Positions 438 through 61,554 of a DNA stretch of 64,000 nt are shown here, piece after piece. Numbering within the stretch: the first letter of the stretch is position 1; the number at the start of each line of letters is the position of its first letter. This DNA comes from Candidatus Peribacteria bacterium (GTDB taxonomy: Bacteria > Patescibacteriota > Gracilibacteria > Peribacterales > Peribacteraceae), in the NCBI GenBank assembly GCA_020632295.1, contig JACKFU010000001.1, positions 601,442-665,441 on the forward strand, written 5' to 3'. Made by a program: the position numbers and the translations under genes. Under the pieces are notes generated by a model, which saw nothing but the letters and a program-made list of their open reading frames with translations, was not told where the DNA came from and made no database searches.

Positions 438-456
438 GGAGAAAAAGTATACAAGA

Positions 457-476
457 GGAAAGTGGAAAGTGGAAAG
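457..476. repeat. GGAAAGT heptamer tandem array (about 3 units) in divergent dnaX/dsbA-like spacer
   Basis: Direct reading: ggaaagtggaaagtggaaag. Confidence 0.9.
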
Positions 477-5021: not shown

Positions 5022-6464
5022 ATGCACCAATCGCGTTTTCATCAGCTATTTCTGACAGTTTTGATTGTTGCCATTGCCATTTCTGGCATTGGCCTCCTCT
5101 CCTATTGCTGGTTTCAGCTTACATCCGGATACCTCCACGGTGATGCGCTGATTTTCCAAACAGTGGGGAGGGGAATGCTGCACGGATACAAACCGTATGT
5201 CGATCTCTTTGAAACCAAGCCACCCGGAGTCTTTTTGCTCCACGCGCTTTCGTGGAAGCTGTTTGGGAGTCAGCTTCTTGTTTCTCTGCTGAGTGTTGCT
5301 TGCCTGCTTGGCATTCCGATTCTCGTGACTGTTCCTGTGGTGCAGGAGCGAAAGGTGCTCATTCTGCTGACTATGCTTTTTGGTCTTACACTTGCATTGT
5401 ACGTTGCCAATCAGGCCGGTGGGGGGCTTGCGGAAAGTTACGGGGCGTTCTTTGGTGTTGCCTTTCTGGGATTGTTGATTTCCGAGAGAATATCAACACT
5501 GAAGCCACTGCTTCTCGGCATACTTCTGCTCCTTGCAGTTGGCTTTAAAGAACCGTTTCTCCTTTCTATTCTTGCAGGCGTAATCGTACTTACAGATAGG
5601 CCAAAAGATCTGGTAACATCTTTTCTTGTTCCTGTTGGCATTACAGTCGTGCTGGGGCTTATTGGCTTATTTGCTTTTTCGCTCTTCGATCCGTTCTTCT
5701 CAATCTACCTTCCACACATGCTTGGGTTTCATGTGCATCAACATGATGGATCGACGTTTGTTCATGCACTTGAAATCTGGAGGACGTTTATCAATATGGG
5801 TGCGTACTCGTGGGGGTTTGCGGGAGCAATTACTGTACTTTGGCTTTTAGCTTTCAGCTTTCAGCTTTCAGCTTTCAGATATGTTGCTGCTTCGTATCTC
5901 ACGCTTCTCGCGATTGCCATTGGCGGAGACTTCTACGGTCATCACTTTGTGTTTGCCGTACCGTTTTACAGCGCACTGTGGTGGAAATTTTTAGGGAGCG
6001 GAAAGTGGGTGTTTGTGCTTATTGCGACAGGCTTGGTGTTTGCCGCACTGACTAGCACGCAGTTTTCGTATAAGAATGCTGCTACGCAATGGAAACAAAA
6101 AGAGGTGAGTATGCGGCAGGCCGCTACTACGATTGATGATGTTATGGATGCGTGTAACTGGGAGAAGTATCTGCAAATTATTCCGCGAGTGGGAGATGCA
6201 TTTGCGTATACCGATCATGTTCCGTACGGGCCAATCTTTCTCCACTATGCACGGTTTATTGGTGCGCGTCGCGAGTATCAAACAGCATTTATTCATGCCC
6301 TGAATGAGGCGAAGCTCATTTTGGTTCTCGACCTTCAGGAGTCTAACCTCTCTGAAGATGCCATTGAGTTTATTGGGGTGCATTTTGATGAGAATCCTCC
6401 TGCGTGTGTAGGAGGAGAATTTAGCCAGCCAGAGCCGTATTCTCTTCTCTTTAGGAAAAATTGA
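5022..6464 (+). CDS. ArnT/PMT-like (GT39/GT83-type) polytopic membrane glycosyltransferase
   Basis: About 12 TM segments. N-terminal loop GDALIFQTVGRGMLHGYKPYVDLFETKPPG is typical of the family. ATG at 5022 preferred over TTG at 4992. Confidence 0.6.
   Translation: MHQSRFHQLFLTVLIVAIAISGIGLLSYCWFQLTSGYLHGDALIFQTVGRGMLHGYKPYVDLFETKPPGVFLLHALSWKLFGSQLLVSLLSVACLLGIPILVTVPVVQERKVLILLTMLFGLTLALYVANQAGGGLAESYGAFFGVAFLGLLISERISTLKPLLLGILLLLAVGFKEPFLLSILAGVIVLTDRPKDLVTSFLVPVGITVVLGLIGLFAFSLFDPFFSIYLPHMLGFHVHQHDGSTFVHALEIWRTFINMGAYSWGFAGAITVLWLLAFSFQLSAFRYVAASYLTLLAIAIGGDFYGHHFVFAVPFYSALWWKFLGSGKWVFVLIATGLVFAALTSTQFSYKNAATQWKQKEVSMRQAATTIDDVMDACNWEKYLQIIPRVGDAFAYTDHVPYGPIFLHYARFIGARREYQTAFIHALNEAKLILVLDLQESNLSEDAIEFIGVHFDENPPACVGGEFSQPEPYSLLFRKN
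5843..5878. repeat. GCTTTYA heptamer tandem array (5 units) inside the glycosyltransferase CDS
   Basis: gcttttagctttcagctttcagctttcagctttcag, encoding LLAFSFQLSAFRY. Confidence 0.9.
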
Positions 6465-9869: not shown

Positions 9870-10454
9870 ATGAGTCAGCATCTTGTATTAGCGTCGGCGA
9901 GTCCTCAGCGGAAGAGGTTGCTTGAAGGACTTGGTCTGACATTTGAGGTGCATCCGAGCACGTACGATGAATCTGCGTATGCAGAGCAAGATCCAGTAAT
10001 GCGCTGCAAGCACTTGGCAGCCTATAAAGCACAAGAGGTAAATGAGCGATTCCCAGATAGCTTTGTCATTGGCTGCGATACACTTGTTGTTGCTCAAGAT
10101 GGTACGTTGCTTGAGAAGGCAGCAACGCCGGAGGAAGCGAGAGCGGCAATAGTACTTCTTTCAGGGAAGTCTTGTGTTGTGCATTCTGGGCTATCTGTGT
10201 TTGATCCTCAACAGAAACACTACGAGGGTATCAGCTCGTCGACCGTATATTTTAAACAGCTGAGTGATGAAGAGATTGCCTGGTGGATCTCGACTGGTCT
10301 CTGGCAAGATCGATCTGGTTCCTTCCAAATTGATGGTCCAGGACAGCTGATGATTGAGCACATCGAAGGAGACTGGAGCTCGATTGTGGGGCTTCCTGTT
10401 TTCTTACTTGGAGAATTGCTTAAGAAGGCAGGATATGAATTACTCTGTTTATAA
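9870..10454 (+). CDS. maf: Maf-family nucleoside triphosphate pyrophosphatase
   Basis: LVLASASPQRKRLLEGLGL N-terminus and overall Maf pattern. Confidence 0.9.
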   Translation: MSQHLVLASASPQRKRLLEGLGLTFEVHPSTYDESAYAEQDPVMRCKHLAAYKAQEVNERFPDSFVIGCDTLVVAQDGTLLEKAATPEEARAAIVLLSGKSCVVHSGLSVFDPQQKHYEGISSSTVYFKQLSDEEIAWWISTGLWQDRSGSFQIDGPGQLMIEHIEGDWSSIVGLPVFLLGELLKKAGYELLCL

Positions 10455-11264
10455 TTCCATCTTTGTTGTCACCCATTCCCAGAGCTCATCGAAGATTGGG
10501 GTAGTTGCTGTTGCACAGCGGTAGCCTGTTCGAGGATTGCCTGGGTCGAGAGGATCGAGCTTCATCTTTCCTCCCGCTTCTTCTACCAACAAAAATCCTG
10601 CTGCAATGTCCCAGAGTCGGATGCCAAGAAAGAAGGCGCCGTCTGTTTTTCCTCTGAGGATCTCGCCAATTTCCTGTGCGGCACATCCTGTATTTTCGAT
10701 GGAGGCACAGTAGGGCATTGTTGCTCTGTAAATACCATCTTCTCCCTGAACAGCACGTCGCATGGTGTTGCAGTTTAAAACTGCATCGGTCATTCCTTTT
10801 GTCTCTCGTAGTTGTACGGGTTCACCATTAAAAAATGAACCAAGTCCTCGCGCTCCGTAAAACTTCTGATTGAGTAGTGGCAGCTCCATGGAACCTGCAA
10901 GCAGCTCACCGTCTTTCTGAACAGCGATAATCGTGCCAAAATTTTCCCGTTTGTGAATGTAGTTGAGCGTTCCATCGAGTGGATCGATGATCCATTCGTA
11001 TGGACTGTTTGGGTCTCCAATATGTTCTGCACCACTTTCCTCAGCAATAAATCGATGGTCAGGAAAATGGTTCTGAATAATGCTAATAATCAGTTTTTGT
11101 GCCTTTCCATCGAGTTCGGTGACGTAGTCTGTTGCGGATTCTTTTGTTGTAATCTCTAGGCTTCCTCCTTGGCAAAATGCCTCATACTCTTTGACGAGTA
11201 ATGCAGATGCTGCCGCTGTCGCTTCTCGACAGACGTCAAGCAGCTGTTTGTTGTCAGGGGACAT
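10449..11264 (-). CDS. Inositol monophosphatase family protein
   Basis: WIIDPLDGTLNY and WDIAAG motifs. ATG at 11264 overlaps the upstream stop by 1 nt (TAATG). Confidence 0.8.
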   Translation of the reverse strand: MSPDNKQLLDVCREATAAASALLVKEYEAFCQGGSLEITTKESATDYVTELDGKAQKLIISIIQNHFPDHRFIAEESGAEHIGDPNSPYEWIIDPLDGTLNYIHKRENFGTIIAVQKDGELLAGSMELPLLNQKFYGARGLGSFFNGEPVQLRETKGMTDAVLNCNTMRRAVQGEDGIYRATMPYCASIENTGCAAQEIGEILRGKTDGAFFLGIRLWDIAAGFLLVEEAGGKMKLDPLDPGNPRTGYRCATATTPIFDELWEWVTTKMEL

Positions 11265-11962
11265 TAGAGTGTCGGTAAACGGTAGTCGTAGAGTTTTCTT
11301 CGAATGCGCTCGTATGCAGGCAGTGCCCATTCTACCCATGCCCAGTACTGTGCGCTATGGTCTGCACGCTTACGGTGCGCAAGCTCGTGAATAATGACAT
11401 ACCGTAGGACATCTGGTGTAACAAAGAGGAGGGCAGCATTGAGCATGATAACGCCCGATGGACTACAGCTACCCCATTGGGAAGAGGCAAACTGGAGTTT
11501 GACTGTGGAAATATGGACGCCAAATGTCTCTGTGTTAATGGTGCGTACCAGCTTTTCGATACGGGAAAGCTCTTGCTTGCAGAGTGTCTTCCATAGGAGC
11601 CTATGCAGCCCCTGACGCCTCATTTTTGGTCCGATAGTTACCGTCCAACCACTCGCTGTACGTTTAATTGTTGTTTTATTCCCGGGTCGCAACGAGAAGC
11701 GGTATTTCTGTCCATTCTGGAGAGTGATAGTCGTGCTTTCTCCACTATCGAGTAGCCTGCCAAAGGGGTGAATGAGCGTCTTTTCCTGCTCCTCAACGAC
11801 TTGCCGCGTCATGCGCTCTAAGAGGTCTGAGATATGCTCTTTCTCTTCATCAGCAGAAAGTCCCTTTGCAAGCCGTATTACGATAGTATCGTCGCGGAAG
11901 ACGGCACGACTGTGCTTGTTTCCAGTACGCTCAACCCGGTGGCGAATGGGGTATTTTTTCAT
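11264..11962 (-). CDS. YgjP/DUF45-like M48-type zinc metallohydrolase
   Basis: C-terminal VIIHELAHRKRADHS (HExxH) in a protein of about 230 aa, typical of the DUF45 family. Confidence 0.7.
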   Translation of the reverse strand: MKKYPIRHRVERTGNKHSRAVFRDDTIVIRLAKGLSADEEKEHISDLLERMTRQVVEEQEKTLIHPFGRLLDSGESTTITLQNGQKYRFSLRPGNKTTIKRTASGWTVTIGPKMRRQGLHRLLWKTLCKQELSRIEKLVRTINTETFGVHISTVKLQFASSQWGSCSPSGVIMLNAALLFVTPDVLRYVIIHELAHRKRADHSAQYWAWVEWALPAYERIRRKLYDYRLPTL

Positions 11963-12007
11963 TGGGACTAATGAGTATACAGATGCGTCAAGCCCACGGC
12001 TTGGAGA

Positions 12008-12034
12008 GGAAAGCGGAAAGCGGAAAGCGGAAAG
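12008..12034. repeat. GGAAAGC heptamer tandem array (about 4 units), intergenic
   Basis: ggaaagcggaaagcggaaagcggaaag. Confidence 0.9.
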
Positions 12035-12074
12035 AGATGGTTGGTATACCTACTATTTGGCTCTAGGAAGCCAT

Positions 12075-13052
12075 CTATTTGTACGAATCACTATTTTCGG
12101 CTTCAGCTTGCTCAATTTCTGTGTTCAATGTCTTCGCCGCGAGAGCCAAATCATTACAGAATTTTACATCGGATTGGACTTGACGGAATCCTGTGATAAG
12201 TTCGTTTTGTTCCTCTTCCTGAAGAAGGGTCTTCAAGACAGCCTCCTGCTCTTCTAGACAGGCGATTGCAGCTTCTATTTTCTCTGTAACAAGAGGGGGA
12301 GGAGGGGTGTTTCCAACACGAATATCATCGAGGCGGACCATCAGGTGGATAACCCACGTTCGTGCTCTATCAACGCGTAGGTGGCTCATAGCTAGGCTTC
12401 TTTGGACATTGTAGGTGATGCCAAGGTTGCGCTTGGCTTCTTCCAAACCTTCTTTACTGTCGTAGACGCCAACATCCATTGCTTGGATCACGGTAGAGAT
12501 GGCATCCATCAGGTTTCCGATGTGGAAGAGAGCAGTCTTCTTTGTCGATTCCACGGGGCCTGCCATTGTTTCTACAAACTGTTTCTCTTTGCGGAGCATC
12601 TCTAAATCCATTGTTAGAGTTGCTCGGAAACAGGTAAAGGTGACAGTGGTTACTGTATCGCGGTTTGCCTTGCGAACATCATCACGGCATGCACGTCTTT
12701 TTTCCGTACGCTTTTGTCGCCGAAGTTGCTGTTGTTCTCGAAACGCAGCAGCCTCTTTACGTGTGTTCATCATAGCAGCCCAGAAGCCCTGGTCACGCGA
12801 TCTACGTTCTTGCCACTTGAGTTGTGTGGCTTGTATTTCGAGGAGTTCTCCGGTGCTAAGGGAGAGGGAAGAGGTCTCAGAAGGTACAGAGGAATCAGAG
12901 GAAAGAGAGGAGCTCGAGGAACTTGAAGAGCTCGAAGATGTTTTCTGTAGCCCTATTGCTGCGAAGGTTTTCATCGGAGCGCAGAGGGTTCCAAGAAGAC
13001 AGAATACGATGAGGAGCCGTGAGAAAGAAGTCACGGGAAGGCAGTGTAGCAT
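12075..13052 (-). CDS. Secreted hypothetical protein with poly-Ser tract
   Basis: Signal-like N-terminus, SSSSSSSSSSSLSSDSS run, helical remainder. Starts 6 nt after the upstream stop. Confidence 0.6.
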   Translation of the reverse strand: MLHCLPVTSFSRLLIVFCLLGTLCAPMKTFAAIGLQKTSSSSSSSSSSSLSSDSSVPSETSSLSLSTGELLEIQATQLKWQERRSRDQGFWAAMMNTRKEAAAFREQQQLRRQKRTEKRRACRDDVRKANRDTVTTVTFTCFRATLTMDLEMLRKEKQFVETMAGPVESTKKTALFHIGNLMDAISTVIQAMDVGVYDSKEGLEEAKRNLGITYNVQRSLAMSHLRVDRARTWVIHLMVRLDDIRVGNTPPPPLVTEKIEAAIACLEEQEAVLKTLLQEEEQNELITGFRQVQSDVKFCNDLALAAKTLNTEIEQAEAENSDSYK

Positions 13053-13058
13053 TTATTA

Positions 13059-13979
13059 CTACGCTTTTGCTACTTTCAGTACATGGCCACTAAGACTTTC
13101 GACAACTGCTTCAAGTTCATCATTGATAATGAGATGATCAAAGAGATCTTTTTGGTCTTCGAAGAATTTTAGGTCCTCCTCTGCATTCTTCAGTCGGTCT
13201 GCAATTTGTTTCTCGGTGTCACGTCCACGTTCACGGAGTCGGTGGAGGAGGGATGAGAGCATTTGACGTTTACTGCTACCTGGAGGAAGGAGCCCAAACG
13301 AGAGGATCGATCGTCGTCCGAGCGTCGACGACAGTCCTTGCAGCAGGCCCATCTCGGTAATGACAATCGGAATCTTTTTCTTCGACCAAATTGCTTCGAT
13401 ATCCTTCTTCCTGTATCCATACCAGCGCTTTTCATCGGACGAGGGGATACTGGTTGATGCTGCTAGTTCATCATTTCTTTTCAGGTTCAAAAACTCTTCA
13501 GTGGTGACATGAATGTATTCATCTTCATCACTGGCTTTAGGAGGACGTGTTGTCAGAATTGGTACGCGCTCAACGTACGAACCAACTTTCGTAGAAAGGA
13601 GAATGGAGACGGTTGTCTTTCCCACGCCCGATGGCCCCGTAAGTGCGAGGAGATAGCCAGGGAATTCCTGCTTTACGTCCTGATGTACCGGTACTTCATA
13701 GGCAATGTCGTAGGATCGCAGGCCATCTGCTGTCACCTGGGAAAGGCGCATGCGGGGGGTGACGTGCATGCCAATGGCTAACGACAATTGACGATTAACA
13801 ATTAACTGACCTGCCACTTTTGTTCCGTCTTCTAGTTCAATGAGACCGATTATTCTTGGTTCACTGGGAAACCCTTCTGGGGGATGATGGACGACGGTCC
13901 ACGAGAGAATGGTACCCTCTTGAAGTTTTTTCTTGAGGTTTGCTTGAGCTCGGTGAATAGATGGAGGAGTACTACGCAT
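13059..13979 (-). CDS. Fusion protein: DUF35-type OB-fold domain plus guanylate-kinase-like P-loop kinase domain
   Basis: N-terminal GTILSWTVVHHPPEGFPSEPRIIGLIELEDGTKVAGQL...IGMHVTPR (DUF35 OB pattern, no Zn ribbon). C-terminal GPSGVGKTT P-loop, TTRPPK..., YGY, LID RLRERGRD. ATG at 13979 overlaps the thiolase stop by 8 nt. Confidence 0.7.
   Translation of the reverse strand: MRSTPPSIHRAQANLKKKLQEGTILSWTVVHHPPEGFPSEPRIIGLIELEDGTKVAGQLIVNRQLSLAIGMHVTPRMRLSQVTADGLRSYDIAYEVPVHQDVKQEFPGYLLALTGPSGVGKTTVSILLSTKVGSYVERVPILTTRPPKASDEDEYIHVTTEEFLNLKRNDELAASTSIPSSDEKRWYGYRKKDIEAIWSKKKIPIVITEMGLLQGLSSTLGRRSILSFGLLPPGSSKRQMLSSLLHRLRERGRDTEKQIADRLKNAEEDLKFFEDQKDLFDHLIINDELEAVVESLSGHVLKVAKA
13788..13808. 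repeat. Degenerate heptamer array TTGACGA/TTAACAA/TTAACTG inside the DUF35 domain CDS
   Basis: Direct reading. Encodes the loop IVNRQLS. Confidence 0.7.
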
Positions 13980-15081
13980 GTTCCAGTATATGAATTCCGC
14001 AAGTGGCAGCAGCACCGCCGAAGTTATGGGTCAGGCCATATGTTTTTTCGCTTGTTTTCAACTGCTTGGCGATGTCAATCATCTGCTTAATGCCGGTTGC
14101 TGCGACCGGGTGTCCGCATGCTTTTAGTCCGCCAGAGGCATTAATTGTGATTTGTGATTCGTGATTTGTATAGAGATTGATCCCTTCACCAGGGAGCGCA
14201 AAGCCCATATCTTCCAGTGAGATGATGGCGGCGATAGAGAAGCAATCATGGAGCTCGATGCAATCAATCTGATCACGCGTAATATCTGCTTCTTGTAGTG
14301 CGGCAACCATCGCATCTTTTGTAGCAGCAAATGATGTCACCGTTTGTCTGTCACAGAGACTCAGTGCATCGGTTGTTAGTTGTGATGCAATGATCTTGAG
14401 AGGGCTCTCGTGCTTTGTTGAGAGAATAACGGCTGCCGCACCGTCACTAATCGGCGAACAATCGAGCATACACAGTGGGTCAGCGACCTTCGGTGATGCA
14501 CTAATTGCCTCCGCGGGGATCTCTTTTCGAAACTGTGCAAAGGGATTTGAGACTGCATTTTTGTGATGCCTCGCACTCACCGCATTGAGCCTCTCTCTCG
14601 TTAGGCCATGCTCAAACATGTAGCGGTTTGTAATGAGTCCGAAGATACCGGGGAAGGTGAGTCCGGATGGACTGTCTTTCTCCGCATCGGCAGCTCCCAT
14701 AAGTGCAGAGGCAATAACGGAGCCGGGTACATCCGTCATTTTTTCTACGCCAACAACGAGGACAGTTTCTGCTTTACCGCTTTCGAGCATTGCACAGGCC
14801 GTGTGCAGTGCAACTGCCCCCGACGCGCATGCTGCTTCTGCGCGAAGTGCTGGCGGCTGGTGAGGCAGCAGACTTGCTGCCATTGCACCGAGGTGTGCTT
14901 GGTCATTTGTTGCTTCGCCAAGCATGTTGGCAACCACGACCATATCAATATCGAGTGCAGTGCATGTTGCGTTTTCTATTGCTGCATCGATCGCTTCTTC
15001 CATTAGGTCACGAATACCTTTGTCCCAGTGCTCACCGAAGCGTGTTTGCCCTGAGCCGGTGAGGTAGATAGAAGTGTTCAA
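13972..15081 (-). CDS. Acetyl-CoA acetyltransferase (archaeal/SCP-x-type thiolase)
   Basis: LTGSGQTRFGEHW, active-site region AACASGA, C-terminal GGLKACGHPVAATG...NFGGAAAT. Apparent TTG start. Confidence 0.85.
   Translation of the reverse strand: MNTSIYLTGSGQTRFGEHWDKGIRDLMEEAIDAAIENATCTALDIDMVVVANMLGEATNDQAHLGAMAASLLPHQPPALRAEAACASGAVALHTACAMLESGKAETVLVVGVEKMTDVPGSVIASALMGAADAEKDSPSGLTFPGIFGLITNRYMFEHGLTRERLNAVSARHHKNAVSNPFAQFRKEIPAEAISASPKVADPLCMLDCSPISDGAAAVILSTKHESPLKIIASQLTTDALSLCDRQTVTSFAATKDAMVAALQEADITRDQIDCIELHDCFSIAAIISLEDMGFALPGEGINLYTNHESQITINASGGLKACGHPVAATGIKQMIDIAKQLKTSEKTYGLTHNFGGAAATCGIHILEHA
14145..14172. repeat. Heptamer array TTGTGAT/TTGTGAT/TCGTGAT/TTGTATA inside the thiolase CDS
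   Basis: Direct reading. Encodes YTNHESQIT. Confidence 0.85.
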
Positions 15082-15104
15082 GTGGAAAGTGGAAAGCGGA
15101 AAGT
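15082..15104. repeat. GTGGAAA/GCGGAAA heptamer array that fills the whole HMGS-thiolase spacer
   Basis: gtggaaagtggaaagcggaaagt lies exactly between the stop at 15105 and the start at 15081. Confidence 0.9.
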
Positions 15105-16130
15105 TTAGTGACTATTAGCTGTGAGAGATTGATATTCAGAATAATTCAGGTAGTGTGTTTCTCTGGTGTCGGGTTCTAACTCTATGCCATCGCGGAGCAT
15201 TGTCATGAGGAAGGCATCGCTTCCTGCACCGGACCCGTAGGAAACAAGAAGAATGGTCTCATCTTTTTTGGCTTTCTGCAGTACGTGAGCAAGTCCGAGA
15301 GGACTACAGGCACTGTAGGTGTTTCCGATGTGCGGAACAATGAATCCATGTTCCATCTGCTCTTTTGAGAATCCAAATTCTTTTGCCATGCGGCTGGGGA
15401 ACTTTCCGTTTGGCATGTGGAAGATGACGTGGTCGATATCTTTTACCTCTATCTTTGTCAGTTCAAGTATCCCGGCTGTGGCTTCACGCACATGGCGGAA
15501 GTAGGCAGGTTCCCCGGTAAAGCGTCCGGCGTGGCTCGGGTGCTTCTCTCCGTTGGCTCTCCAGAAGTCTGGGGTGTCTGTTGTAAAACTTAGGGTTTTT
15601 TCTATGCGGCAGAGTGCGTGCTTTTGCTCGGCAGATCCCATGACAAACGCAGCAGCACCAGCAGCAGCGGTGTACTCGAGTGCATCACCGGGCTTGCTCT
15701 GCGCTGTATCGGCACCAATGGCAAGACCAAAACTAATCTGCTTTGCTCGTACCATGCTGTCAACAATCTGCATGGCAGCTGTTCCTGCTTTACAAGCAAA
15801 CTCTAGGTCTGCTGCATGACAGAAGGGGTCACACTCAAGGGCAGCTGCTACCATGCCGCTTGTTGGTTTTACGGCATAGGGGTGACTTTCGGATCCGACA
15901 AAAACAGCGGAGATCTGGGTTGATTCAATGCTTGCCATCTCTATGGCTTGCTTTCCTGCGGCAAAGGCGAGGGTAAAGGTGTCTTCTCCGGCATCAGGAA
16001 CAGTTTTTTCGTTCACACCAAGGCCGGATTTATACTGAGCAGCGTCCTGTTTCCAGGCGGCAGCAATTTCCTCCACGGTGATCTTGTTGGAGGGCACAGA
16101 CAAACCAAATCCAATAATGGCGGAATTCAT
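15105..16130 (-). CDS. Hydroxymethylglutaryl-CoA synthase (archaeal-type, about 340 aa)
   Basis: IIGFGLSVPSNKITVEEIA, VFVGSESHPYAVKP, ACKAGT. Size and order next to the thiolase fit. Confidence 0.85.
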   Translation of the reverse strand: MNSAIIGFGLSVPSNKITVEEIAAAWKQDAAQYKSGLGVNEKTVPDAGEDTFTLAFAAGKQAIEMASIESTQISAVFVGSESHPYAVKPTSGMVAAALECDPFCHAADLEFACKAGTAAMQIVDSMVRAKQISFGLAIGADTAQSKPGDALEYTAAAGAAAFVMGSAEQKHALCRIEKTLSFTTDTPDFWRANGEKHPSHAGRFTGEPAYFRHVREATAGILELTKIEVKDIDHVIFHMPNGKFPSRMAKEFGFSKEQMEHGFIVPHIGNTYSACSPLGLAHVLQKAKKDETILLVSYGSGAGSDAFLMTMLRDGIELEPDTRETHYLNYSEYQSLTANSH

Positions 16131-16165
16131 GAGGGGCAGTGTAGCAGAAATTTGGCTTTAAAAAG

Positions 16166-17332
16166 CTATCTAGCCATCTTTTTATGACTACTTGCAAGCT
16201 TCTGTGCAGCCTGTGCTGCAAGCAGACTTATCTCTCCAGCAAGGACTGCAGCTCCGATAGATTCTGCAAGTTGTTGAGCAGGTTTTAGGTTTGAGGTGTT
16301 AGGTTTTAGGAGGAGGGCAAGACATTGGTGTTGTGCGGGAAGTTCCGTTCCACCCCCGCGAACACCACAGAGGAGTGCGGGGAGGCGAGTGGTTATTTGT
16401 AATTCGTGATTCGTTATTTGTTCTACGGTTGTGTCGGCGAGCGAGCCTTCCACGGTGTGTGCAGCATCTTGTCCTGTTGCAAGATACAAAGCGGCGATGA
16501 TATTTGCTGCATGTAAATTCGATCCAATTGCTCCGGCGATCTTCGAGCCACGTTTGAGTTTTGCTTCTGCGACCTCAAGCATGGCTTCGGGCGTAGTCTT
16601 TAGTATCTCTGTGCAGGTTTCAGATGTTAGGTGACAGGTAGCAGTGACTTCATACCCGCGACCCTTGTGGTGCGTGCGCTTACTAGGTTTTTTATCACTA
16701 TCAATATTTCCTGCGATGGTAATCAGACGCGCCGATGGCATGTCTGTACAGATTCTGTTGCCAATCTCCTGAGCGGCAATCGTAATCATATTCATGCCCA
16801 TTGCTTCATCGGTATCTGCGTTCAGCGTGAGGAAGAGGTAGTTATCGTCAGTGTCGATGTCGTAACTAAGGATCTTCAAGTGATTACTTGTTGCTTCTCC
16901 CACGGCTTTCCACTCATCTTCATTCTTCTTGATTGAATTAATTAATTGATCAATGTTTTTCTCTGATTTAAAAGCAATTGTTCGACTGATTCCATGATAG
17001 ATTGATGTGAGTTTTATGCCGTCGCCTTCGGAGACTGCTTTGCAGCCGCGGTTCACACTAGCAACAAGTGCCGCCTCTGTCGTTGCGAGAGGTAGGTGGA
17101 GCGTACTTGTTTCGAGTGAGCTGAATGTTGCCTTGAGAGGGCCTGCGTATCCGACAGGAATCGGGACACTTCCGAACATTTGCTCGCAGTTCTTCTCTTC
17201 CGCCTGCCCAATGCGACTTGGCTCCGTGCCAAGCAGAGAGAGGTTTACATTCAAGGTATCTTGAATTTGCATACGCCTGTGTGCGCAGCGTTCGTGAGAG
17301 GAAAGGTTTTCTGGAAGGTTACGAAGATCCAT
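16166..17332 (-). CDS. HMG-CoA reductase, class I-like
   Basis: LPLATTEAALVASVNRGCKA, DEAMGMNM, RGGGTELPAQHQCL motifs. Confidence 0.85.
   Translation of the reverse strand: MDLRNLPENLSSHERCAHRRMQIQDTLNVNLSLLGTEPSRIGQAEEKNCEQMFGSVPIPVGYAGPLKATFSSLETSTLHLPLATTEAALVASVNRGCKAVSEGDGIKLTSIYHGISRTIAFKSEKNIDQLINSIKKNEDEWKAVGEATSNHLKILSYDIDTDDNYLFLTLNADTDEAMGMNMITIAAQEIGNRICTDMPSARLITIAGNIDSDKKPSKRTHHKGRGYEVTATCHLTSETCTEILKTTPEAMLEVAEAKLKRGSKIAGAIGSNLHAANIIAALYLATGQDAAHTVEGSLADTTVEQITNHELQITTRLPALLCGVRGGGTELPAQHQCLALLLKPNTSNLKPAQQLAESIGAAVLAGEISLLAAQAAQKLASSHKKMAR
16281..16308. repeat. Heptamer array GGTTTTA/GGTTTGA/GGTGTTA/GGTTTTA inside the HMGR CDS
   Basis: Direct reading. Encodes LKPNTSNLKP. Confidence 0.8.
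16393..16420. repeat. Heptamer array TTATTTG/TAATTCG/TGATTCG/TTATTTG inside the HMGR CDS
   Basis: Direct reading. Encodes QITNHELQIT. Related to the array at 14145-14172. Confidence 0.8.
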
Positions 17333-18285
17333 TAGACTAAGTGTGCACCTTTTCCCACACTAGCTTCAAACACTTTACATCCTTTCTGCACATTTGCGTA
17401 TGCCCTTACTGTTTCCAGTGCCTCTGCTTCACAAATCACATGGACTGTTGGTCCGGCATCCATGGTATAGAGCAGGGGAAGATGCTGTGTTTTTCTTAGT
17501 GTCTTTAGTTCGTCGACGATGCGATACGTTTCATCACTTAAGTAGTGCAGCGGAGGATCTTGCGTTTGCATGCAATGATGCATATCCAAACAGTCTTCTT
17601 CGGTGACTGCCATCAATTTTTCAAAATCTTTATTGGCAATAGCATCAATGCATTCTTGCTGACGTCGCTCCGTGATGTCTGTAATACGTTTTTTATAGTG
17701 TGGGCTTGTCCATGCAGAGGCGTGTCCTTCTGTTGAGCCTACCTTCTTATGATCCGTATTTGGTGCAATAACAATATCAAACAACTCCCAGTGATCTTGT
17801 GGGGCAATTTGTCTTGCAATAGCCGAGTCTTCGGTATTTTCTAGTGCAACAAACCCTCCAACAATCGAGCGAGCTGCACTACCAGAACCCAGTCGTGCCA
17901 TTTGCGAAATTTGCTCATCGTTTAGTCCGCAATCTGCGAGTGCTGCAATGGCTTTTGCAAGTGCACTGAAGACTGCTGCAGAGGAAGCGAGTCCAATTCC
18001 CGGTGGAATCTGTGAGTCGATTTCTATCGAAATCGTATTTTGTACCTTTGGATGGTATTGCTTGATGAGATCAACGGTTTTTTGAAAACGTTCGATGTCT
18101 TTATCTTTCATCTCTTTATTATTTGATGAGACGGAAAATCGGTCGGATTCCGTTACCGTAATCTCAACGCAGGGTTCGCTGAGTGTCATGCTTAGTGAAT
18201 CTGCAGCGGGGAGACGAAGCTCATTGTTTCTGTTGCCCCAGTATTTAATAAGGGCGATGTTTGGCGTGGAGCAGGCGGTGATCAT
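17332..18285 (-). CDS. Diphosphomevalonate decarboxylase family (could instead be phosphomevalonate decarboxylase)
   Basis: PNIALIKYWGNRNNELRLPAADSLSMTL, GLASSAA GHMP motif. 1-nt TAATG overlap with the HMGR start. Confidence 0.85.
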   Translation of the reverse strand: MITACSTPNIALIKYWGNRNNELRLPAADSLSMTLSEPCVEITVTESDRFSVSSNNKEMKDKDIERFQKTVDLIKQYHPKVQNTISIEIDSQIPPGIGLASSAAVFSALAKAIAALADCGLNDEQISQMARLGSGSAARSIVGGFVALENTEDSAIARQIAPQDHWELFDIVIAPNTDHKKVGSTEGHASAWTSPHYKKRITDITERRQQECIDAIANKDFEKLMAVTEEDCLDMHHCMQTQDPPLHYLSDETYRIVDELKTLRKTQHLPLLYTMDAGPTVHVICEAEALETVRAYANVQKGCKVFEASVGKGAHLV

Positions 18286-19154
18286 GAGATAGAGAGTGTT
18301 AGAGTGTTAGAGTTTTGGGGAGTGAGGGTACTTAGTATCATGCCACATCCGCCAGTGCGTGCCCCTGCACCAATGACTTTTGCTGCGCCGCCTTCTTGTT
18401 CAATTTTTTTGATCAATTCTTTTGCCTCTTCTGTCACAATACCGAGAGAACACTGTGCTTGATGATGGTCACGGATTACTGTTGCAAGGTCTTCGCCACT
18501 CAGCAGTCGATCGGCGCATGATCCTATCGTCTTAAGGGCGTCTTGTAGCTCTTCTTTTCTCTCTGTTATCCACGCGATAAGTTCCGGTGTTTGTTCATGG
18601 GGTGTTCCGGTATCAATCAGGCACGCATCCTTCAGCAGATTTTCAGGCAGATGAATTGGTTCTGGTTCAGACCCTTTCGTAAACTTCATAGGTTGCTTGT
18701 TCCATATCACGGCAAAGTCCAGTCCGCTATGACCTGGGTTAAGTCTATCTTCAATGTGGAGGGCAGGTTCTTTGTAGTGATGATCAAGGAGTACCCCAGT
18801 AATTGCAATATTGAGTGCTGTTGAGCTTCCCATACCTTTACCAAGTGGCAAATGGTTTTCGATAGCGAGTGTGCCACCAGCTACTGACCGTGCTTCTCTA
18901 CAGTGTTTTATAATCTTTTGTGCGTATGTAATCCAGAGAGGATGCGCATCCCATTCAAGTGTAATTTCGTCTGTTGATGTATTTTCTGTGAACCGCGCAA
19001 TAAGCTCTTGGGAGGAGGGAATGGCAATACCCGTGTATCCAAATAACACGGCATATTCGCCGGAGAGGATAATCTTCCCACAGACGTGTGCAGTTCTATC
19101 CGCCAAATCGCCTTGTACGGGAAGAAAATGCATCGACAGATTCCTGCAGCTCAT
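18282..19154 (-). CDS. Mevalonate kinase (GHMP kinase)
   Basis: GKIILSGEYAVLFG and PLGKGMGSSTAL motifs. Alternative start at 19133. ATGA overlap with the downstream decarboxylase. Confidence 0.85.
   Translation of the reverse strand: MSCRNLSMHFLPVQGDLADRTAHVCGKIILSGEYAVLFGYTGIAIPSSQELIARFTENTSTDEITLEWDAHPLWITYAQKIIKHCREARSVAGGTLAIENHLPLGKGMGSSTALNIAITGVLLDHHYKEPALHIEDRLNPGHSGLDFAVIWNKQPMKFTKGSEPEPIHLPENLLKDACLIDTGTPHEQTPELIAWITERKEELQDALKTIGSCADRLLSGEDLATVIRDHHQAQCSLGIVTEEAKELIKKIEQEGGAAKVIGAGARTGGCGMILSTLTPQNSNTLTLSIS
18291..18316. repeat. CTAACACT-family octamer array (read on minus strand) forming the mvk C-terminus, just upstream of the decarboxylase ATG
   Basis: Plus strand agagagtgttagagtgttagagtttt. 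Encodes NSNTLTLSIS. Confidence 0.85.
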
Positions 19155-19764
19155 TTACGCCAAAGTCTGGGAAGAGCATGTCGATAAAATCCCACTCCGC
19201 ATACGCTGCCTGGAAGAGGAAGAAGTTGCTTGTTCGATGTTCACCGGAGGTGCGAATAATCAGATCGATATCGGGAAGCTCAGGGTGGTCGAGATACGGC
19301 GAGATGAAATCTTCAGACTCAGCTTTTAGATGATAGCTTTTAGCTTTTAGAGCAGCCCTTAAGATTTCATCTTTGCCACCGTAGTCCACAGCGAGGTGTA
19401 GAGTAAATCCGTCATAGTCTTTTGTTTCTTCTTCTACTTCCTCAATCAGTTTTGCCAGTGAAGTGGGGATGCGGTCACGCCTTCCAGAATGAATAAATTT
19501 TGTGTTCTTATTGTTAAATCCTTCCCGTTCTTTGGCCAAATACTCCTCAAGCATCTTCATGAGCATTGAGACCTCTTTCTTATCGCGTTTCCAGTTTTCC
19601 GTGGAGAAGCACCAGACGGTGAGTGCATCTACTCTCGGGTCGTTTCTGCACCAGTCGGTTAAGCTCCGAAAATGTTCAATAGCTTCCTTGTGCCCATCCC
19701 ATGGATGGAGACTTCGTTTCTTCGCCCAGCGTCGATTGCCGTCAGGGATGATGGCTACATGCAT
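19096..19764 (-). CDS. uppS: Isoprenyl transferase (undecaprenyl-diphosphate synthase family)
   Basis: HVAIIPDGNRRWAKK and IRTSGEHRTSNFFLFQAAYAEW motifs. Confidence 0.9.
   Translation of the reverse strand: MHVAIIPDGNRRWAKKRSLHPWDGHKEAIEHFRSLTDWCRNDPRVDALTVWCFSTENWKRDKKEVSMLMKMLEEYLAKEREGFNNKNTKFIHSGRRDRIPTSLAKLIEEVEEETKDYDGFTLHLAVDYGGKDEILRAALKAKSYHLKAESEDFISPYLDHPELPDIDLIIRTSGEHRTSNFFLFQAAYAEWDFIDMLFPDFGVNELQESVDAFSSRTRRFGG
19321..19348. repeat. AGCTTTT heptamer array inside the uppS CDS
   Basis: agcttttagatgatagcttttagctttt, encoding KAKSYHLKAES. Confidence 0.8.
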
Positions 19765-20267: not shown

Positions 20268-20309
20268 ACAGAGAGTGTAACAGGGAAATTTGGGAATGAT
20301 AGAAAATTA

Positions 20310-20318: not shown

Positions 20319-20325
20319 AGACCTA

Positions 20326-47283: not shown

Positions 47284-49935
47284 TTAGCTAATAGCTTCAT
47301 TGATTTCTTCCATTTTTGGCTCTTTCTTAGCTTTTGTTTGGTCTCCATGAAGGAAATCGAAGCGATCTTTTCCTTTTGCTACGATACGAATCGTATCACC
47401 CTCCTCAAAGATCCCCTTAAGGATATGTTCTGCTATCTCATCCTCAATACGTTCCTGAATAACGCGTCGGACGGGCCTTGCTCCATATTCTGGGTCAAAA
47501 CCAAGCTCTCCAAGGAGATGAACTGCTTTTTGGTCAACCTCAATGGAGAAGCCTTTGTTTTTGAGGCGAGCTTCAAGATTGTCGAGGTGAATTTTTACAA
47601 TTTTGCGAATGGAGTGCTGATCGAGAGCATTGAAAACAATGATGTGATCAATACGGTTGATAAACTCCGGACGAAGGTTTGCCTTGAGTTCCTTAATAAC
47701 CTCTTTTCGTTTCTCTTCGTATGCTTTTTCCTCGGCAGTTGCTTCTTCTTCGAGCTTGAATCCAATTTTTGCTGCCTGCTTGGTGAGTTTTGCTGCACCA
47801 ATGTTACTTGTCATAACAATGATAGTATTTCTGAAGTCGACCTGTTTTCCCTGTGCATCGGTGAGCACACCATCTTCGAGAATTTGCAGGAGGATGTTGA
47901 AGAATTCAGGGTGCGCTTTTTCAATTTCATCAAACAGCACTACAGAGTACGGCTTGCGACGTACAGCTTCTGTTAGCTGTCCACCTTCTTCGTATCCGAC
48001 AAATCCTGCTGTTGCGCCAATGAGACGAGAGACATTGTGTCTCTCCATGAACTCGGACATATCAATCTTAATGAGTGCATCTTCGCGACTAAACACTTCA
48101 CTTGCTATTGTACGAACAAGTTCTGTCTTACCGACACCTGTTGGCCCTAGGAAGAGGAATGAGCCGATTGGCCTACGCTGATCTCCAATACCAATACGAC
48201 TTCTGCGAATGGCACGCGCTACTTTTTTGATTGCATCCTCCTGTCCAACGACATGTTTGCGCATTGTCATCTCCAGATTTTGGAGCCTCTTCTTATCGGA
48301 TTTAAGCAGCTTGGTCACCGGAATACCCGTCATACGACCAATAACATGTGCGATGTCATCTTCGTCAATTTTAAGAGGAGAACGACGGTCTCCGTCAGAA
48401 GCCGCACGCATCTCTTGAATCTTTTCCTGTAAGATTTGCTGTTCCTGTTTTAGCTTAAGTGCAGTGTGGTACTTTTGTTCTTTTACAGCTGTTTGCTGCT
48501 TCATGATAAGCTTTTCTAATTTATCTTCTGTCTTCTTGAGTTCTGGATTTACGTCCATTTCCTGCAGACTACGACCTGCAGAGGCTTCATCTAGGACATC
48601 AATTGCTTTGTCTGGCAGGAACCGATCTGCAATGTAGCGCTTACTGAGTGTTACCGCAGCTTCAAGTGCTTCATCACTGATTTCCAGGTTATGGAATTCT
48701 TCGAAGCTCTTACGAATACCTTGAAGAATGATAATGGAATCTTCGACCGTTGGTTCGTTCACTGTGATCGATTGGAAACGTCGTTCTAAGGCGCGATCTT
48801 TTTCGATCGTGCGGTACTCATCGAGTGTGGTGGCACCAATGACTTGGATGGAACCACGACTGAGAGCTGGCTTCAAAATATTTGCCGCATCAAGTGAGCC
48901 TTCAGCACTGCCGGCGCCAACAACGGTATGAATTTCATCGATGAAGAGGATAATTTCGTTTTCACTCTGCAGTGCCTCTTTGATGATGTCGTCGAAACGC
49001 TGCTCGAACTCACCACGGTATTTGGTACCGGCAATAAGTGACCCCATGTTGAGGACAAGTACGCGTTTATTTTTCAGTGGCGTTGGTACGTTCCCCTCAG
49101 CAATCCGTACTGCAAGACCTTCAACGATTGCGGTCTTTCCTACACCTGGCTCACCAATGAGCACAGGGTTGTTCTTTGTTTTACGGTTGAGAATATGGAC
49201 AACACGCTCAATCTCTTCATCTCGTCCGATAATTGGGTCAATCTTTTTGTCCTTTGCGAGCGCAATGAGGTCGTCGGTGAAGTAATCGAGGACAGGTGTT
49301 TTACTTTTGCCGTCACTCTTTTGTTTGCGAAGCCCTTCGGGGTCTGCATTTGCCCCTGGTGCCATGCCACTTTGCATGCCAACAATTGCGCCTTGAAGTC
49401 CTTGGAAGAACGATTCAAGCGATTGTTCCATATTCCTGCTTTGTGACTTAAACTGCGAAATCTGCCCAAACATCTCTTCGACGTGTGCTTTGAGATCTTC
49501 GGGCTCTACTTGCATCTGCTCAAGCAGTATTGTTGCGGCATTTTTTCCGGTCGATACAAGTGAGTGAAGCAAGTGTTCCGTTCCCACGTTAGCATGACGG
49601 AACTTGTGTGCGGTAATAACACTTTGTTCAATTACGTTATGAAGGTATGTGGAGAGACCGTGCTTAATGTGTTTTCCTTCAATGCTCGGCGTCTTCATCG
49701 ATTTCAGCAGTATGCGCACGTTTTCCTGTGTAACTCCTGCGCCGGTAAAGATAGAAAACCCAAGGGATTTTGGAATTGAGAGGAGTCCCAGGAGCAAGTG
49801 CTCTGTTCCTATGTAGTTACTCTTCATGTTCTTTGCTTCTTGCTCTGCAATTTGTAGTGCAAGTTTAGCGTTGGGAGTAAAACGATCGAAGGGGTGCATA
49901 GGAGGAGTGGAAAGAGGAGAGAGGAAAGTTTCCAA
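47284..49935 (-). CDS. clpC: ATP-dependent Clp ATPase, ClpC-like
   Basis: Two Clp_N repeats, two AAA+ modules ([20 protein letters not shown]), short UVR-like middle domain, IGF loop. Confidence 0.9.
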
Positions 49936-57624: not shown

Positions 57625-58741
57625 GGTTTGATACAGCTTGCTTCATCTGTATCTCAAACTTCTCTCTTGAAAATTGTTGAGCTTGTGCTTTGCACAATTC
57701 AGCATCAAATGCTGATGCATTGAATATTTGCAAAACATCTGCGAGTGACTGCGGTGTCTGCTCATCAAAGAACAGTCCCGTCTTTCCTTCGACGATGGTT
57801 TCGAGTGGTCCTCCGGCCCGGAAGCTGATTACTGGTGTGCCACATGCCATTGCTTCGAGCGGTGCGATGCCGAAGTCTTCGATACCGGGGAAGAGGAGAG
57901 CGGAGGCGTTTGTGTAGAGTTCTTTGAGACTTTCTTGCTCTTGATATCCAAGAAAGGTGATTTGCGATGCGTGATTCGTGCGTTGCTCTAGACGTTTTCT
58001 GTCAGGTCCTTCGCCTACTATCTTCAGGGGAGCGTTGATCTTGTTGCATGCGTCTATGGCGATATCAATTTGTTTGTAGGGAACGAGTGTAGAAACAATC
58101 AGGAAGTATCTTTCCGCTTTCCGCTTTCCACTTTCCACTTTTTTTAGCCAGAAATCATCTATTGGCGGGTAAATGACATCACTCTCTCGTCGCCAGTAGA
58201 GCTCTATTCTTCGTTGAACATCGTTCGATGCAGCGATAAGTTTGTCAGCACGCCCAGCACATTCGGCATCCCACGCGCGAAGTTTGTGAAATGTTTTTTG
58301 GAGATAGCGTTGCTTGAGAGGTCCGAATAGCCCGTGCCGTGCGTGTTTTTGCACATCGAATGTTCTGTCCCAGAGATACCTGGCAGGTGCATTAATGTAC
58401 GAGAGGTGCTTTGGTTTACCATTGGTAATGATGTTGTGGGTGAATGCAGAGGAGGTACTAATCACCACATCATATTCGTTAAAATTCCACTGTTCTACAG
58501 CTGAGGGAAACCGTGATAGGTGTATGTGGTGATTAAGCGGAAAGCGGAAAGCGGAAAGCGGAAAGCGTGGTTGGAGTGTGCTTGTACGCACTCTCTCCCT
58601 TGGAAACCAGTCGCCAAGCTTCTTCTCGTTGTAGAGAAGTGTATAGATGGGGGCTTCGGGATAGAGGTCTGCAAGGATCTTTGCAACCCGCTCGGCGCCA
58701 CCGCGCATGGTCAGCAGTTCGTGGACAAGGGCTATTTTCAT
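57614..58741 (-). CDS. GT4-family (GT-B) glycosyltransferase
   Basis: MKIALVHELLTMRGGAERV N-terminus and EDFGIAPLEAMACGTPVI (EX7E). ATG at 58741. Confidence 0.85.
   Translation of the reverse strand: MKIALVHELLTMRGGAERVAKILADLYPEAPIYTLLYNEKKLGDWFPRERVRTSTLQPRFPLSAFRFPLNHHIHLSRFPSAVEQWNFNEYDVVISTSSAFTHNIITNGKPKHLSYINAPARYLWDRTFDVQKHARHGLFGPLKQRYLQKTFHKLRAWDAECAGRADKLIAASNDVQRRIELYWRRESDVIYPPIDDFWLKKVESGKRKAERYFLIVSTLVPYKQIDIAIDACNKINAPLKIVGEGPDRKRLEQRTNHASQITFLGYQEQESLKELYTNASALLFPGIEDFGIAPLEAMACGTPVISFRAGGPLETIVEGKTGLFFDEQTPQSLADVLQIFNASAFDAELCKAQAQQFSREKFEIQMKQAVSNLML
58110..58137. repeat. CTTTCCR heptamer array (4 units) inside the GT4 CDS
   Basis: ctttccgctttccgctttccactttcca, encoding VESGKRKAE. 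Confidence 0.9.
58537..58567. repeat. GCGGAAA heptamer array (4 units) inside the GT4 CDS, inverted relative to 58110-58137
   Basis: gcggaaagcggaaagcggaaagcggaaagcg, encoding RFPLSAFRFPL. Confidence 0.9.
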
Positions 58742-60774: not shown

Positions 60775-61554
60775 ATGATTGATTCTCACTGTCATCTTGC
60801 CGATCGTAAATTTGCAGCAGACCTTTCGGGTGTTATTTCACAGGCAAACGCTGCTGGGGTTACCCATATGGTGACGATTGCTGACGATGTGTCTGAGGCG
60901 GAAAAATGTCGACAGCTTGCTGAGAAATATGATCAATTATTTTATACAGTTGGAGTACATCCACACGCAGCTAAAGAGTGGAACGTGGAACATGGAAAGA
61001 GCAAAGTTTTGGAATGTGCTCAGGATAAGAAGATGGTTGCGGTCGGAGAGATTGGCTTGGACTATCATTATATGAACAGCCCGAAAGACGATCAGATCCG
61101 AGCGTTTTATGATCAAATTGTGATCGCGCAGGAACTCAATTTTCCTATTGTCGTACATAACCGCGAATCGTTTGAAGACCTCCTCTCGATCATTGATGAA
61201 CTGAAACCTACAGCAATGGTATTGCACTGTTGCACAGAAGAATGGGCGAATGCGAAGAAGCTTATTGAACTCGGGTATCTTCTTGGGTTTACAGGTATTG
61301 CAACGTATCCCAAATCAGTGGCAATTCGAGAAGTCATCAAGCAGTGTCCACTCAAGCAGATGATGATTGAAACAGATGCACCCTATCTTGCCCCAGAAGG
61401 AAGGCGAGGGGAGCGATGCGAGCCTGCAATGGTTACGGAGGTGGCAAAATGTATTGCAGATATCAAGGGGGTATCGCTGCAAGAGGTTGATAGAATAACC
61501 ACGAAGAATACGATGGACTTTTACCGCCTTTCTCCTGATATACTTGCCTTGTGA
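60775..61554 (+). CDS. tatD: TatD-family metal-dependent hydrolase
   Basis: MIDSHCHL, GEIGLDYHY, ETDAPYL motifs. Confidence 0.9.
   Translation: MIDSHCHLADRKFAADLSGVISQANAAGVTHMVTIADDVSEAEKCRQLAEKYDQLFYTVGVHPHAAKEWNVEHGKSKVLECAQDKKMVAVGEIGLDYHYMNSPKDDQIRAFYDQIVIAQELNFPIVVHNRESFEDLLSIIDELKPTAMVLHCCTEEWANAKKLIELGYLLGFTGIATYPKSVAIREVIKQCPLKQMMIETDAPYLAPEGRRGERCEPAMVTEVAKCIADIKGVSLQEVDRITTKNTMDFYRLSPDILAL

Follow-up and report, generated by a model that had tools for sequence, protein, structure and literature searches.

An STRR-like family of dispersed heptanucleotide repeats in a Candidatus Peribacteria genome and its probable insertion between the HMG-CoA synthase and thiolase genes

The stretch of 64,000 nucleotides analysed here (contig JACKFU010000001.1 of a Candidatus Peribacteria bacterium, positions 601,442 to 665,441; hereafter the window) carries five short tandem arrays of the heptamer GGAAAGY (CTTTCCR on the opposite strand), one of which fills the entire spacer between the genes for HMG-CoA synthase (HMGS) and acetoacetyl-CoA thiolase. 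We consider it probable that these arrays form a dispersed heptanucleotide microsatellite family similar to the STRR repeats of cyanobacteria, made and homogenised by slippage and tolerated where harmless, and that the array in front of the thiolase gene is one such tolerated insertion. The host belongs to Candidatus Peribacteria, within the candidate phyla radiation (CPR), and has a compact genome; thiolase relatives at 66-80% identity are labelled Candidatus Peribacteria, Peribacter or Peregrinibacteria, and the intergenic share is 4.4% of the annotated part of the window. The GenBank metagenome-assembled genome (MAG) GCA_020429195.1 represents the same species, whereas a search of 5.8 billion proteins found no strain-level relative closer than 86% HMGS identity. 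The loci of the compared relatives are referred to by labels (L005-L016, L212-L217 and others); L007, L214 and L215 are related Peribacteria, and L215 is the closest relative found (HMGS 86% identical).

An earlier note, made from the sequence of the window alone, had described GGAAAG(C/T) arrays at five loci, and all five were confirmed. Allowing up to one mismatch, GGAAAGYGGAAAG has 13 matches in the window against 0.14 expected, a number reached by none of 100 shuffles, which places the motif far above chance within these 64 kb. All 13 two-unit matches lie within 457-476 (+), 12008-12034 (+), 15084-15103 (+), 58110-58136 (-) and 58539-58565 (+). Tandem Repeats Finder (TRF) delimits the corresponding arrays at 453-476, 12008-12034, 15080-15104, 58110-58141 and 58535-58567, with a period of 7, 3.4-4.7 copies and 88-100% matches, which supports the note's assignment to a microsatellite-like tandem heptamer family of the STRR kind. 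Outside the arrays, single GGAAAGY units occur at chance level (18 versus 16.6 expected); since singletons are not enriched once the arrays are removed, the signal is the tandem arrangement and not the GGAAAGY word. Seven is also the dominant short tandem period in the window, with 8 arrays compared to 0-2 for periods 5, 6 and 8-12. The arrays at 12008, 15082, 58110 and 58535 are 100% identical in contigs of six SRA runs and in one GenBank MAG, and four of the five are thus not assembly artefacts. Three arrays are intergenic and two are located inside a coding sequence (CDS). Around the five arrays we found no conserved flanks beyond partial units, no target duplication and no associated gene, and a larger mobile element comprising the arrays was rejected because the flanks are not conserved. 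Among known RNA families only three tRNAs were detected in the window at the gathering threshold, none of them near the arrays, and G-quadruplex formation was dismissed on sequence grounds, GGAAAGY containing only GG runs.

The array at 15080..15104 (minus strand; 3.6 units, A CTTTCCG CTTTCCA CTTTCCA CTT) separates the HMGS gene (15105-16130, minus; PF08541, with an orthologue named hydroxymethylglutaryl-CoA synthase) from the thiolase gene (13972-15081, minus). On the minus strand the junction reads TAA ACTTTCCGCTTTCCACTTTCCAC TTG, where TAA is the HMGS stop (15105..15107) and TTG the thiolase start (15079..15081). That the repeat makes up the complete 23-nt gap, as had been claimed, is confirmed by the limits of both open reading frames (ORFs) and by TRF, in which the 7-nt periodicity runs two bases on, into the TT of the start codon. 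This TTG, the only one among about 45 genes, is homologous in position to an ATG in all relatives, and it must be used because the N-terminus of the protein, MNTSIYLTGSGQTRF, is conserved with orthologues. In L006 (…CATTAATG), L007 (…CACTAATG) and L217 (…CATTAATG) the two genes meet in an overlapping TAATG; in L005 they are separated by 4 nt, and in L216 by 15 nt that contain no repeat. Alignment with L005, L006 and L007 gives an insertion of 24-27 nt at the window junction relative to TAATG, and the junction can be written as CACTAA + ACTTTCCGCTTTCCACTTTCCACT + TGAAC, TAATG being split exactly by a 24-nt heptamer block (ACTTTCC GCTTTCC ACTTTCC ACT). Comparison of these junctions thus shows that the block was inserted into an ancestral overlapping TAATG. 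The insertion moved the two genes 23 nt apart and changed ATG to TTG: it left the A with the stop codon and put a T before TG, which accounts for the rare start codon.

At the same site, other heptamers have settled independently in two relatives: in L215 by AACTAAK x4.6, spanning the stop codon and a 23-nt gap, and in L016 by about nine units of CTCTAAG/CCCTAAA/CCCTACC. In L016, a Peribacteria MAG, the run (5928-6003) contains the HMGS stop; ATG, GTG and TTG are all absent before the conserved N-terminus of the thiolase (ISIVGTGQTRF…), and a canonical start in frame is first reached 22 codons downstream; this reflects either a non-canonical start or an assembly error. Random drift had been named as the alternative in case the motif were no more frequent than expected or the arrays were invariant and absent from orthologous spacers in close relatives. 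The array is indeed missing from the spacers of L005, L006, L007, L216 and L217, but the motif is far from chance level and the L215 and L016 junctions were filled on separate occasions. A frameshift fusion of HMGS and thiolase via the array was rejected, as the array begins only after the HMGS TAA and the thiolase reading frame is blocked shortly upstream by TAA and TAG. With its ancestral ATG lost to the array, the thiolase gene is called from a wrong start, a point of practical relevance: automatic annotations place its start at an internal ATG in 3 of 4 assemblies (loci L001, L003 and L004), resulting in a protein of 343 instead of 369 amino acids that lacks 26 conserved residues.

The position of the array directly in front of a start codon raises the question of a role in translation. 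In about 43 called genes (those of the window regions 6498-25159 and 46708-64000), purine-rich Shine-Dalgarno (SD)-like tetramers (GGAG, GAGG, AGGA, GGGG, AAGG) were found at -20..-4 in 3 of 43, and none precedes the thiolase, dnaX or YgjP-like genes. The genome thus appears not to use SD sequences, and since almost no gene of the window has one, their absence from the thiolase spacer is not distinctive. Many genes have a TATAAT/TATACT-like box 7-12 nt before the ATG, a spacing that suggests widespread leaderless mRNAs; stop/start overlaps (ATGA/TAATG) are frequent, and gene start regions are depleted in G. Predicted minimum free energies (MFEs) average -6.8 kcal/mol for start regions versus -11.1 kcal/mol for internal sequence, and the thiolase start region (-30..+30), at -0.1 kcal/mol, is the fourth least structured of 45. 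The earlier description of this spacer as G-poor, unstructured and devoid of an SD sequence was therefore borne out. Dinucleotide shuffles of the spacer (-26..+30; MFE -0.1 kcal/mol) are, however, equally unstructured (z = 1.05-1.55), so that the structure test is uninformative beyond base composition, and the repeat gives a G-poor, non-pairing composition and nothing more specific. Thiolase would be translated without SD like every other gene here, likely through re-initiation by ribosomes terminating at the HMGS UAA 23 nt upstream, and the G-poor repeat, unable to pair with itself, would keep the start region free of RNA structure.

It has to be considered whether the CTTTCCR repeats are instead a dedicated initiation leader, as the earlier note suggested and as MacGregor proposed for TAACTGA repeats, selected as an unstructured, pyrimidine-rich standby or S1-binding site that replaces the SD sequence or tunes the thiolase:HMGS ratio; we regard this as unlikely. 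The other two intergenic arrays also lie upstream of genes. The GGAAAGT x3.4 array at 453..476 (+) is located in a 63-nt divergent spacer between a dnaX-like clamp-loader gene (minus, ATG 437-435) and a DsbA-like lipoprotein gene (plus, ATG 501), and read in the direction of dnaX it is a CTTTCCA repeat that stops 19 nt short of the ATG. The GGAAAGC array at 12005..12034 (+; x3.9-4.3, 100% matches), in a 112-nt spacer between two minus-strand genes, reads CTTTCCG in the gene sense; a YgjP-like metallopeptidase gene has its ATG (11962) 45 nt downstream of the array's end. In addition, a degenerate CTTTCC-type leader, ACTTTCCTCTCTCCTCTTTCCACTCCTCCT, is found at 49900..49929 (minus), directly upstream of the clpB ATG (49899). 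These three intergenic arrays (distances of 0 nt for thiolase, 19 nt for dnaX and 45 nt for the YgjP-like gene) and the clpB leader all appear as CTTTCC when read in the direction of the gene that follows. Likewise, a CTTTCCx array ends 0 nt from the start of the clpB orthologue in L213, and a family unit lies 20 nt before the HMGR start in L007. Furthermore, five of the eight least structured of the 45 start regions are preceded by G-poor tandem repeats, the octamer CTAACACT and the heptamer AAAAGCT likewise abut start codons, and there is a precedent in TAACTGA repeats that end 1 nt before start codons lacking a ribosome binding site.

Several observations speak against such a leader function. 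With intergenic DNA amounting to only 4.4%, nearly any intergenic array falls just upstream of a start, and shuffled spacers are as unstructured as the real one. Five close relatives have no array at the junction, three of them (L006, L007, L217) using the overlapping TAATG, and the insertion exchanged ATG for the weaker TTG. The TTAGAGTG repeat before maf is G-rich in sense, and two of the five arrays, as well as many in relatives, reside inside coding loops in either orientation, where they cannot serve initiation. The proposal of a translation-initiation spacer thus holds in so far as the thiolase spacer is predicted to be unstructured; it loses weight because shuffles behave alike and because the absence of SD sequences is a genome-wide rule, and it cannot extend to the arrays inside coding loops. 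The thiolase array is accordingly better viewed as a tolerated insertion, oriented so as to spare initiation, and presumably not as a dedicated translation element.

Even less can be said for the idea that the repeats bind a transcription factor or nucleoid protein or supply promoter hexamers, which we judge very unlikely. Three units make 21 bp, equal to two helical turns, and at dnaX the array provides a -35-like TTTCCA (475-470), 18 nt upstream of a TATACT (451-446) that is followed by the ATG 8 nt after this -10 box. No promoter-like match was found at the arrays at 12008 and 15082, however, the distance to the start codon varies from 0 to 45 nt, some arrays are inside coding regions, units at orthologous sites differ between species, and no candidate binding protein was identified. 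A promoter or terminator role for the arrays was rejected, a plausible -35/-10 pair being present at dnaX alone.

Two arrays missed by the first inspection as parts of a gene, together with further heptamer arrays of other units, show that the repeats are also translated. Both are located in the CDS of a GT4 glycosyltransferase (57614-58741, minus): the GGAAAGC x4.7 array at 58535..58567 (+; 100% matches) reads CGCTTTC in the gene sense and encodes RFPLSAFRFPL in variable loop 1, and the GGAAAGY x4.6 array at 58110..58141 (-) encodes (V)ESGKRKAE in variable loop 2. Three variable loops of this GT4 family carry translated heptamers in most orthologues, and most of the orthologue arrays are 100% uniform internally. 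In loop 1 the units are CGCTTTC x4.7 in the window, TTTCCAC x3.9 in L214, GTCAGTG x3.9 in L213 and CCCTACG x4.7 in L212; in loop 2 they are GGAAAGY x4.6 in the window, AAAGCAG x4.3 in L213 and CCTACGC x8.4 in L212, with none in L214. Within this one gene of the window, one array is the reverse complement of the other at a distance of about 400 nt, and the two could base-pair in the mRNA or bring about inversion of the segment between them; in L212 both loops have the same unit in direct orientation.

Similar cases are found in other proteins. The GTGGAAC x2.9 array at 60978..60997 (+), in the TatD CDS 203 nt from its start and one mismatch from the GGAAAGY-family unit, has a counterpart at the same position in L213 (TTGGAAA x3.1), and an orthologous pair of UppS loops contains AAAAGCT and AAAGTGG, respectively. 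A length-variable loop of the thiolase itself carries a separate heptamer family in the window (AATCACR x3.4 in gene sense, 14143..14166, minus, encoding NHESQIT) and CTATCCA x4.6 in L005, whose HMGR loop contains the octamer ACGAACCA. The GCTTTCA x5.1 array at 5843..5878 (+) encodes LLAFSFQLSAFR within the CDS (4992-6464) of a membrane protein of 490 aa; TGAAAGC, the reverse complement of the unit, differs from GGAAAGC in a single base. Arrays show up as indels of +3 to +6 amino acids in variable protein loops, and in the MVD loop of L216, which is free of arrays, a degenerate remnant has survived. CTTTCCR is free of stop codons in all six reading frames, which is why its arrays can sit in genes in both orientations; as the cause of the family's success this was discarded as a weak filter, since 50% of all heptamers share the property. 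In the annotated part of the window, 5 of 13 short-period (7-, 8- and 14-nt) arrays are fully intergenic.

Translated arrays whose unit is not a multiple of three invite comparison with phase variation, in which one 7-nt unit more or less in the GT4 arrays would shift the frame and toggle a surface-glycan enzyme. The glycosyltransferase gene does contain two near-perfect arrays of this type, in frame and with a unit whose change would switch expression, and a heptanucleotide precedent is documented at the hmw loci of Haemophilus influenzae, where a 7-nt tandem unit upstream of the gene undergoes slippage-driven copy-number change and is variable within populations. The hmw repeat tracts are much longer than 3-5 units. 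The tracts here comprise 3-5 units, no variation was seen among identical consensus assemblies, all same-species assemblies sharing one in-frame length, and equivalent arrays occur in housekeeping enzymes (thiolase and TatD; MVD, MVK and UppS in L215), which argues against a dedicated switch. We therefore hold phase variation to be highly improbable.

All these locations are consistent with a family that is generated by slippage and persists where it is tolerated. Replication slippage or unequal exchange, strongly favouring the 7-nt period in these lineages, would create and homogenise the arrays, and a mutated unit could sweep through its array; in this way, perfect orthologous arrays that lie 1-2 bases per unit apart between species are accounted for. 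Perfection within a genome combined with differences of 1-2 bases between species is the pattern expected from mutation followed by homogenisation through expansion and contraction. Arrays would last only where they do little harm, namely in the roughly 4% of intergenic DNA and in protein surface loops, where their total length would stay a multiple of three. The view of the arrays as slippage hotspots is supported by unit number and sequence differing between orthologous arrays of sibling genomes; within the species no polymorphism was seen, which is a weak test.

Some findings weigh against this explanation. No length variants were seen at the covered arrays in the contigs of six SRA runs and one MAG, although comparison of identical consensus assemblies has little power. 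The uniform CTTTCC sense of the unambiguous leader arrays, with four independent cases (YgjP-like, thiolase, clpB together with its L213 orthologue, and HMGR of L007; one-sided p about 0.06, small n), hints at selection on orientation; for this bias, purifying selection that removes G-rich leaders is no worse an explanation than a positive role. Period-7 arrays are unevenly distributed: they number 19-76 per 100 kb in the window, L005, L007-L009, L012, L013, L016 and L212-L215 and are absent from L006, L010, L011, L014, L015, L216 and L217 (L011 with 8-nt arrays only), and this split between array-rich and array-free siblings, which shows no link to GC content, implies a lineage-specific factor. 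Finally, slippage alone leaves the same 7-mer at five unlinked loci unexplained, and L215 shares the CTTTCCA unit with the window at non-orthologous sites. As a side observation, in syntenic 21-kb loci L215 has 13 heptamer arrays and L216, a sibling of similar divergence, has none.

The sharing of one unit among several unlinked sites, which slippage does not explain, leaves room for copying, e.g. by template switching between arrays, as a minority possibility, or for convergence on preferred units. In its strong form this would be active propagation, in which a lineage-restricted process copies the genome's current heptamer into new or existing sites, including loops of essential enzymes, as a minimal form of mobile DNA; template switching between arrays in break repair, ectopic conversion and RNA-templated synthesis are candidates. 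Identical units are shared by 7.5% of array pairs within a genome compared to 0.9% between genomes and 0.1% for random heptamers. The within-genome rate is thus 8.5 times that between genomes, as copying would predict, but the between-genome rate is itself 9 times random, so that preferred units could recur by convergence, and L213 and L214 show little sharing. In L212 the unit CCCTACG occupies the two GT4 loops as well as the clpB start, sites at which the window has CTTTCCR-type units, and CTTTCCA recurs at different sites in the window and L215; on the other hand, some orthologous units are only 1-2 bases apart and explained by mutation and slippage. What entered the thiolase junction was a block of several units, for which no seed copy can be seen in relatives having TAATG, whereas the L215 junction array seems to grow from the native ...AACTAA at the HMGS 3' end, suggesting an origin in situ. 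Array density is bimodal among sibling lineages, which would fit an on/off process, and the lack of conserved flanks, target duplications or an associated gene in the window does not. Taken together, we consider active propagation rather unlikely, with a little less credit than a leader function, and prefer slippage with tolerance as the explanation of the family.

The unit is not confined to this host. Contrary to the suggestion in the earlier note of a genome-specific family, the relatives L007, L214 and L215 share it, and GGAAAGY x3 was matched in no fewer than 120 unrelated metagenome contigs, with a GC content of 29-71% among the matches listed and often as inverted pairs, and these matches are too mixed for orientation statistics. 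Tandem arrays are often arranged as adjacent inverted pairs, i.e. n units followed by n copies of the complement, as in L005 (739-802 and 9768-9850), L008 (2880-2941), L009 (1436-1545), L012 (5804-5879) and L013 (2558-2645) and at many metagenome loci such as L103, L127 and L179. Several of these pairs are located in the spacer upstream of the thiolase gene, and they would form hairpins built from repeats.

Among known repeats, the STRR elements are the closest match. The GGAAAGY arrays consist of an exact 7-nt unit repeated head to tail, the same unit is found at five separate loci in 64 kb, and they are of the same kind as STRR without being members of the named cyanobacterial families. The unit sequences of STRR1-3 differ from GGAAAGY. 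As cited in Rehm et al. (2015, PMC4692102), STRRs are heptanucleotide repeats of heterocystous cyanobacteria (Calothrix/Nostoc) and share with the present repeats the 7-nt unit, the short length of the tandem arrays, the presence of more than one family in a genome and the dispersal over many loci; STRR loci are mostly non-coding, compared with three of the five arrays here. Differences are the Peribacteria (CPR) host, other units, shorter arrays (3-5 units) and a large share residing in frame in conserved genes. The same work, citing Mrazek (2007), also records a general over-representation of heptamers and a hypothesis of slippage related to the polymerase footprint. The GGGAATC/GGGGAYT repeats of Xanthomonas and Nostoc are heptamer simple sequence repeats over-represented in intergenic regions, which vary in length and sequence between close relatives at the same intergenic positions and form inverted pairs (Rehm et al. 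2015, PMC4692102). Arrays of the type found in the window also vary between relatives at orthologous positions and occur in inverted pairs; in contrast, the units of Xanthomonas and Nostoc are G-rich and form G-quadruplexes, which are not expected for GGAAAGY with only GG runs, and a location in coding loops is not reported for them.

The TAACTGA direct repeats of marine Beggiatoaceae, cyanobacteria and Bacteroidetes occur in 2-6 copies that mostly end a few nucleotides before an SD-less start codon, some overlapping the stop of the upstream gene and a minority lying inside ORFs; the frequency of singletons is unrelated to that of arrays, and S1, Csp or CsrA have been proposed as binders in post-transcriptional roles (MacGregor 2015, PMC4679880). 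The window arrays are likewise short heptamer tandems without SD before a start, some of them inside ORFs. The unit is different, however, CTTTCCR being stop-free in every frame and forward TAACTGA having stops in all three, only one of the three intergenic arrays abuts a start, and the absence of SD sequences is genome-wide here and thus not tied to the repeats. Borg elements contain perfect, fast-evolving, lineage-specific tandem repeats in intergenic DNA and genes, which, as here, add short repeated peptides to otherwise conserved proteins (Schoelmerich 2023, PMC9879509). The present repeats differ in their 7-nt unit, the 7-aa (21 nt) peptide period and their residence in a bacterial chromosome. 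The genic repeat units of Borgs are reportedly multiples of 3 nt. No earlier report of such heptamer repeats in CPR bacteria was found in the literature searched, and what is new beyond known heptamer repeats is the CPR phylum, the in-frame residence in conserved enzyme loops, the recurrent colonisation of one junction and the on/off distribution among siblings.

The window contains further repeats. Heptamer arrays with other units are present at 19321-19350 and 58747-58769, and an ATTTTCC x3.7 array at 38688-38715 (77% matches with indels) clusters within one mismatch of the CTTTCC family. The octamer family CTAACACT (complement AGAGTGTT) is found in 2.6-3.5 copies at 3798-3825, 9846-9869 and 18293-18313, adjoining the starts of dcd and maf (0 nt each, inverted at maf) and, at a distance of 7 nt, that of the diphosphomevalonate decarboxylase gene; its units contain -10-like AACACT/AATACT hexamers, and the upstream kinase has its C-terminal tail (…NSNTLTLSIS) encoded by the third copy as well. 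At 40119-40351, a 126-nt unit is repeated 1.8 times with 99% identity in a 365-nt intergenic gap and has no Rfam match; the surrounding 40-44 kb region shows unusually long spacers and a local GC-skew reversal.

The HMGS-thiolase junction is part of a mevalonate operon on the minus strand, which comprises genes for a GHMP-family kinase (presumed to be mevalonate kinase), diphosphomevalonate decarboxylase, HMG-CoA reductase, HMGS, thiolase and a DUF35-OB/guanylate-kinase fusion. This last gene (13059-14015, minus) joins a DUF35-type OB fold (PF01796), which serves as scaffold in the thiolase/HMGS complexes of archaea, to a guanylate-kinase-like P-loop domain (PF00625), and the fusion is kept in L001, L002, L016 and L215-L217. 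A separate phosphomevalonate kinase gene is not evident in the operon, which makes the guanylate-kinase-like domain a candidate for this step.

The origin, spread and function of bacterial heptanucleotide tandem repeats have been unsettled since the description of STRR. A compact CPR genome makes such repeats easy to place on gene maps, and the syntenic siblings provide three handles: one junction colonised by three units, species-specific perfect loop arrays, and sister lineages that are either rich in arrays or free of them. The sibling lineages thus represent a natural experiment for finding the driver of 7-nt repeat formation. Should active copying prove true, heptamer arrays would be the smallest known self-propagating DNA, and copying would explain both the on/off distribution among siblings and the origin of STRR-type repeats in general.

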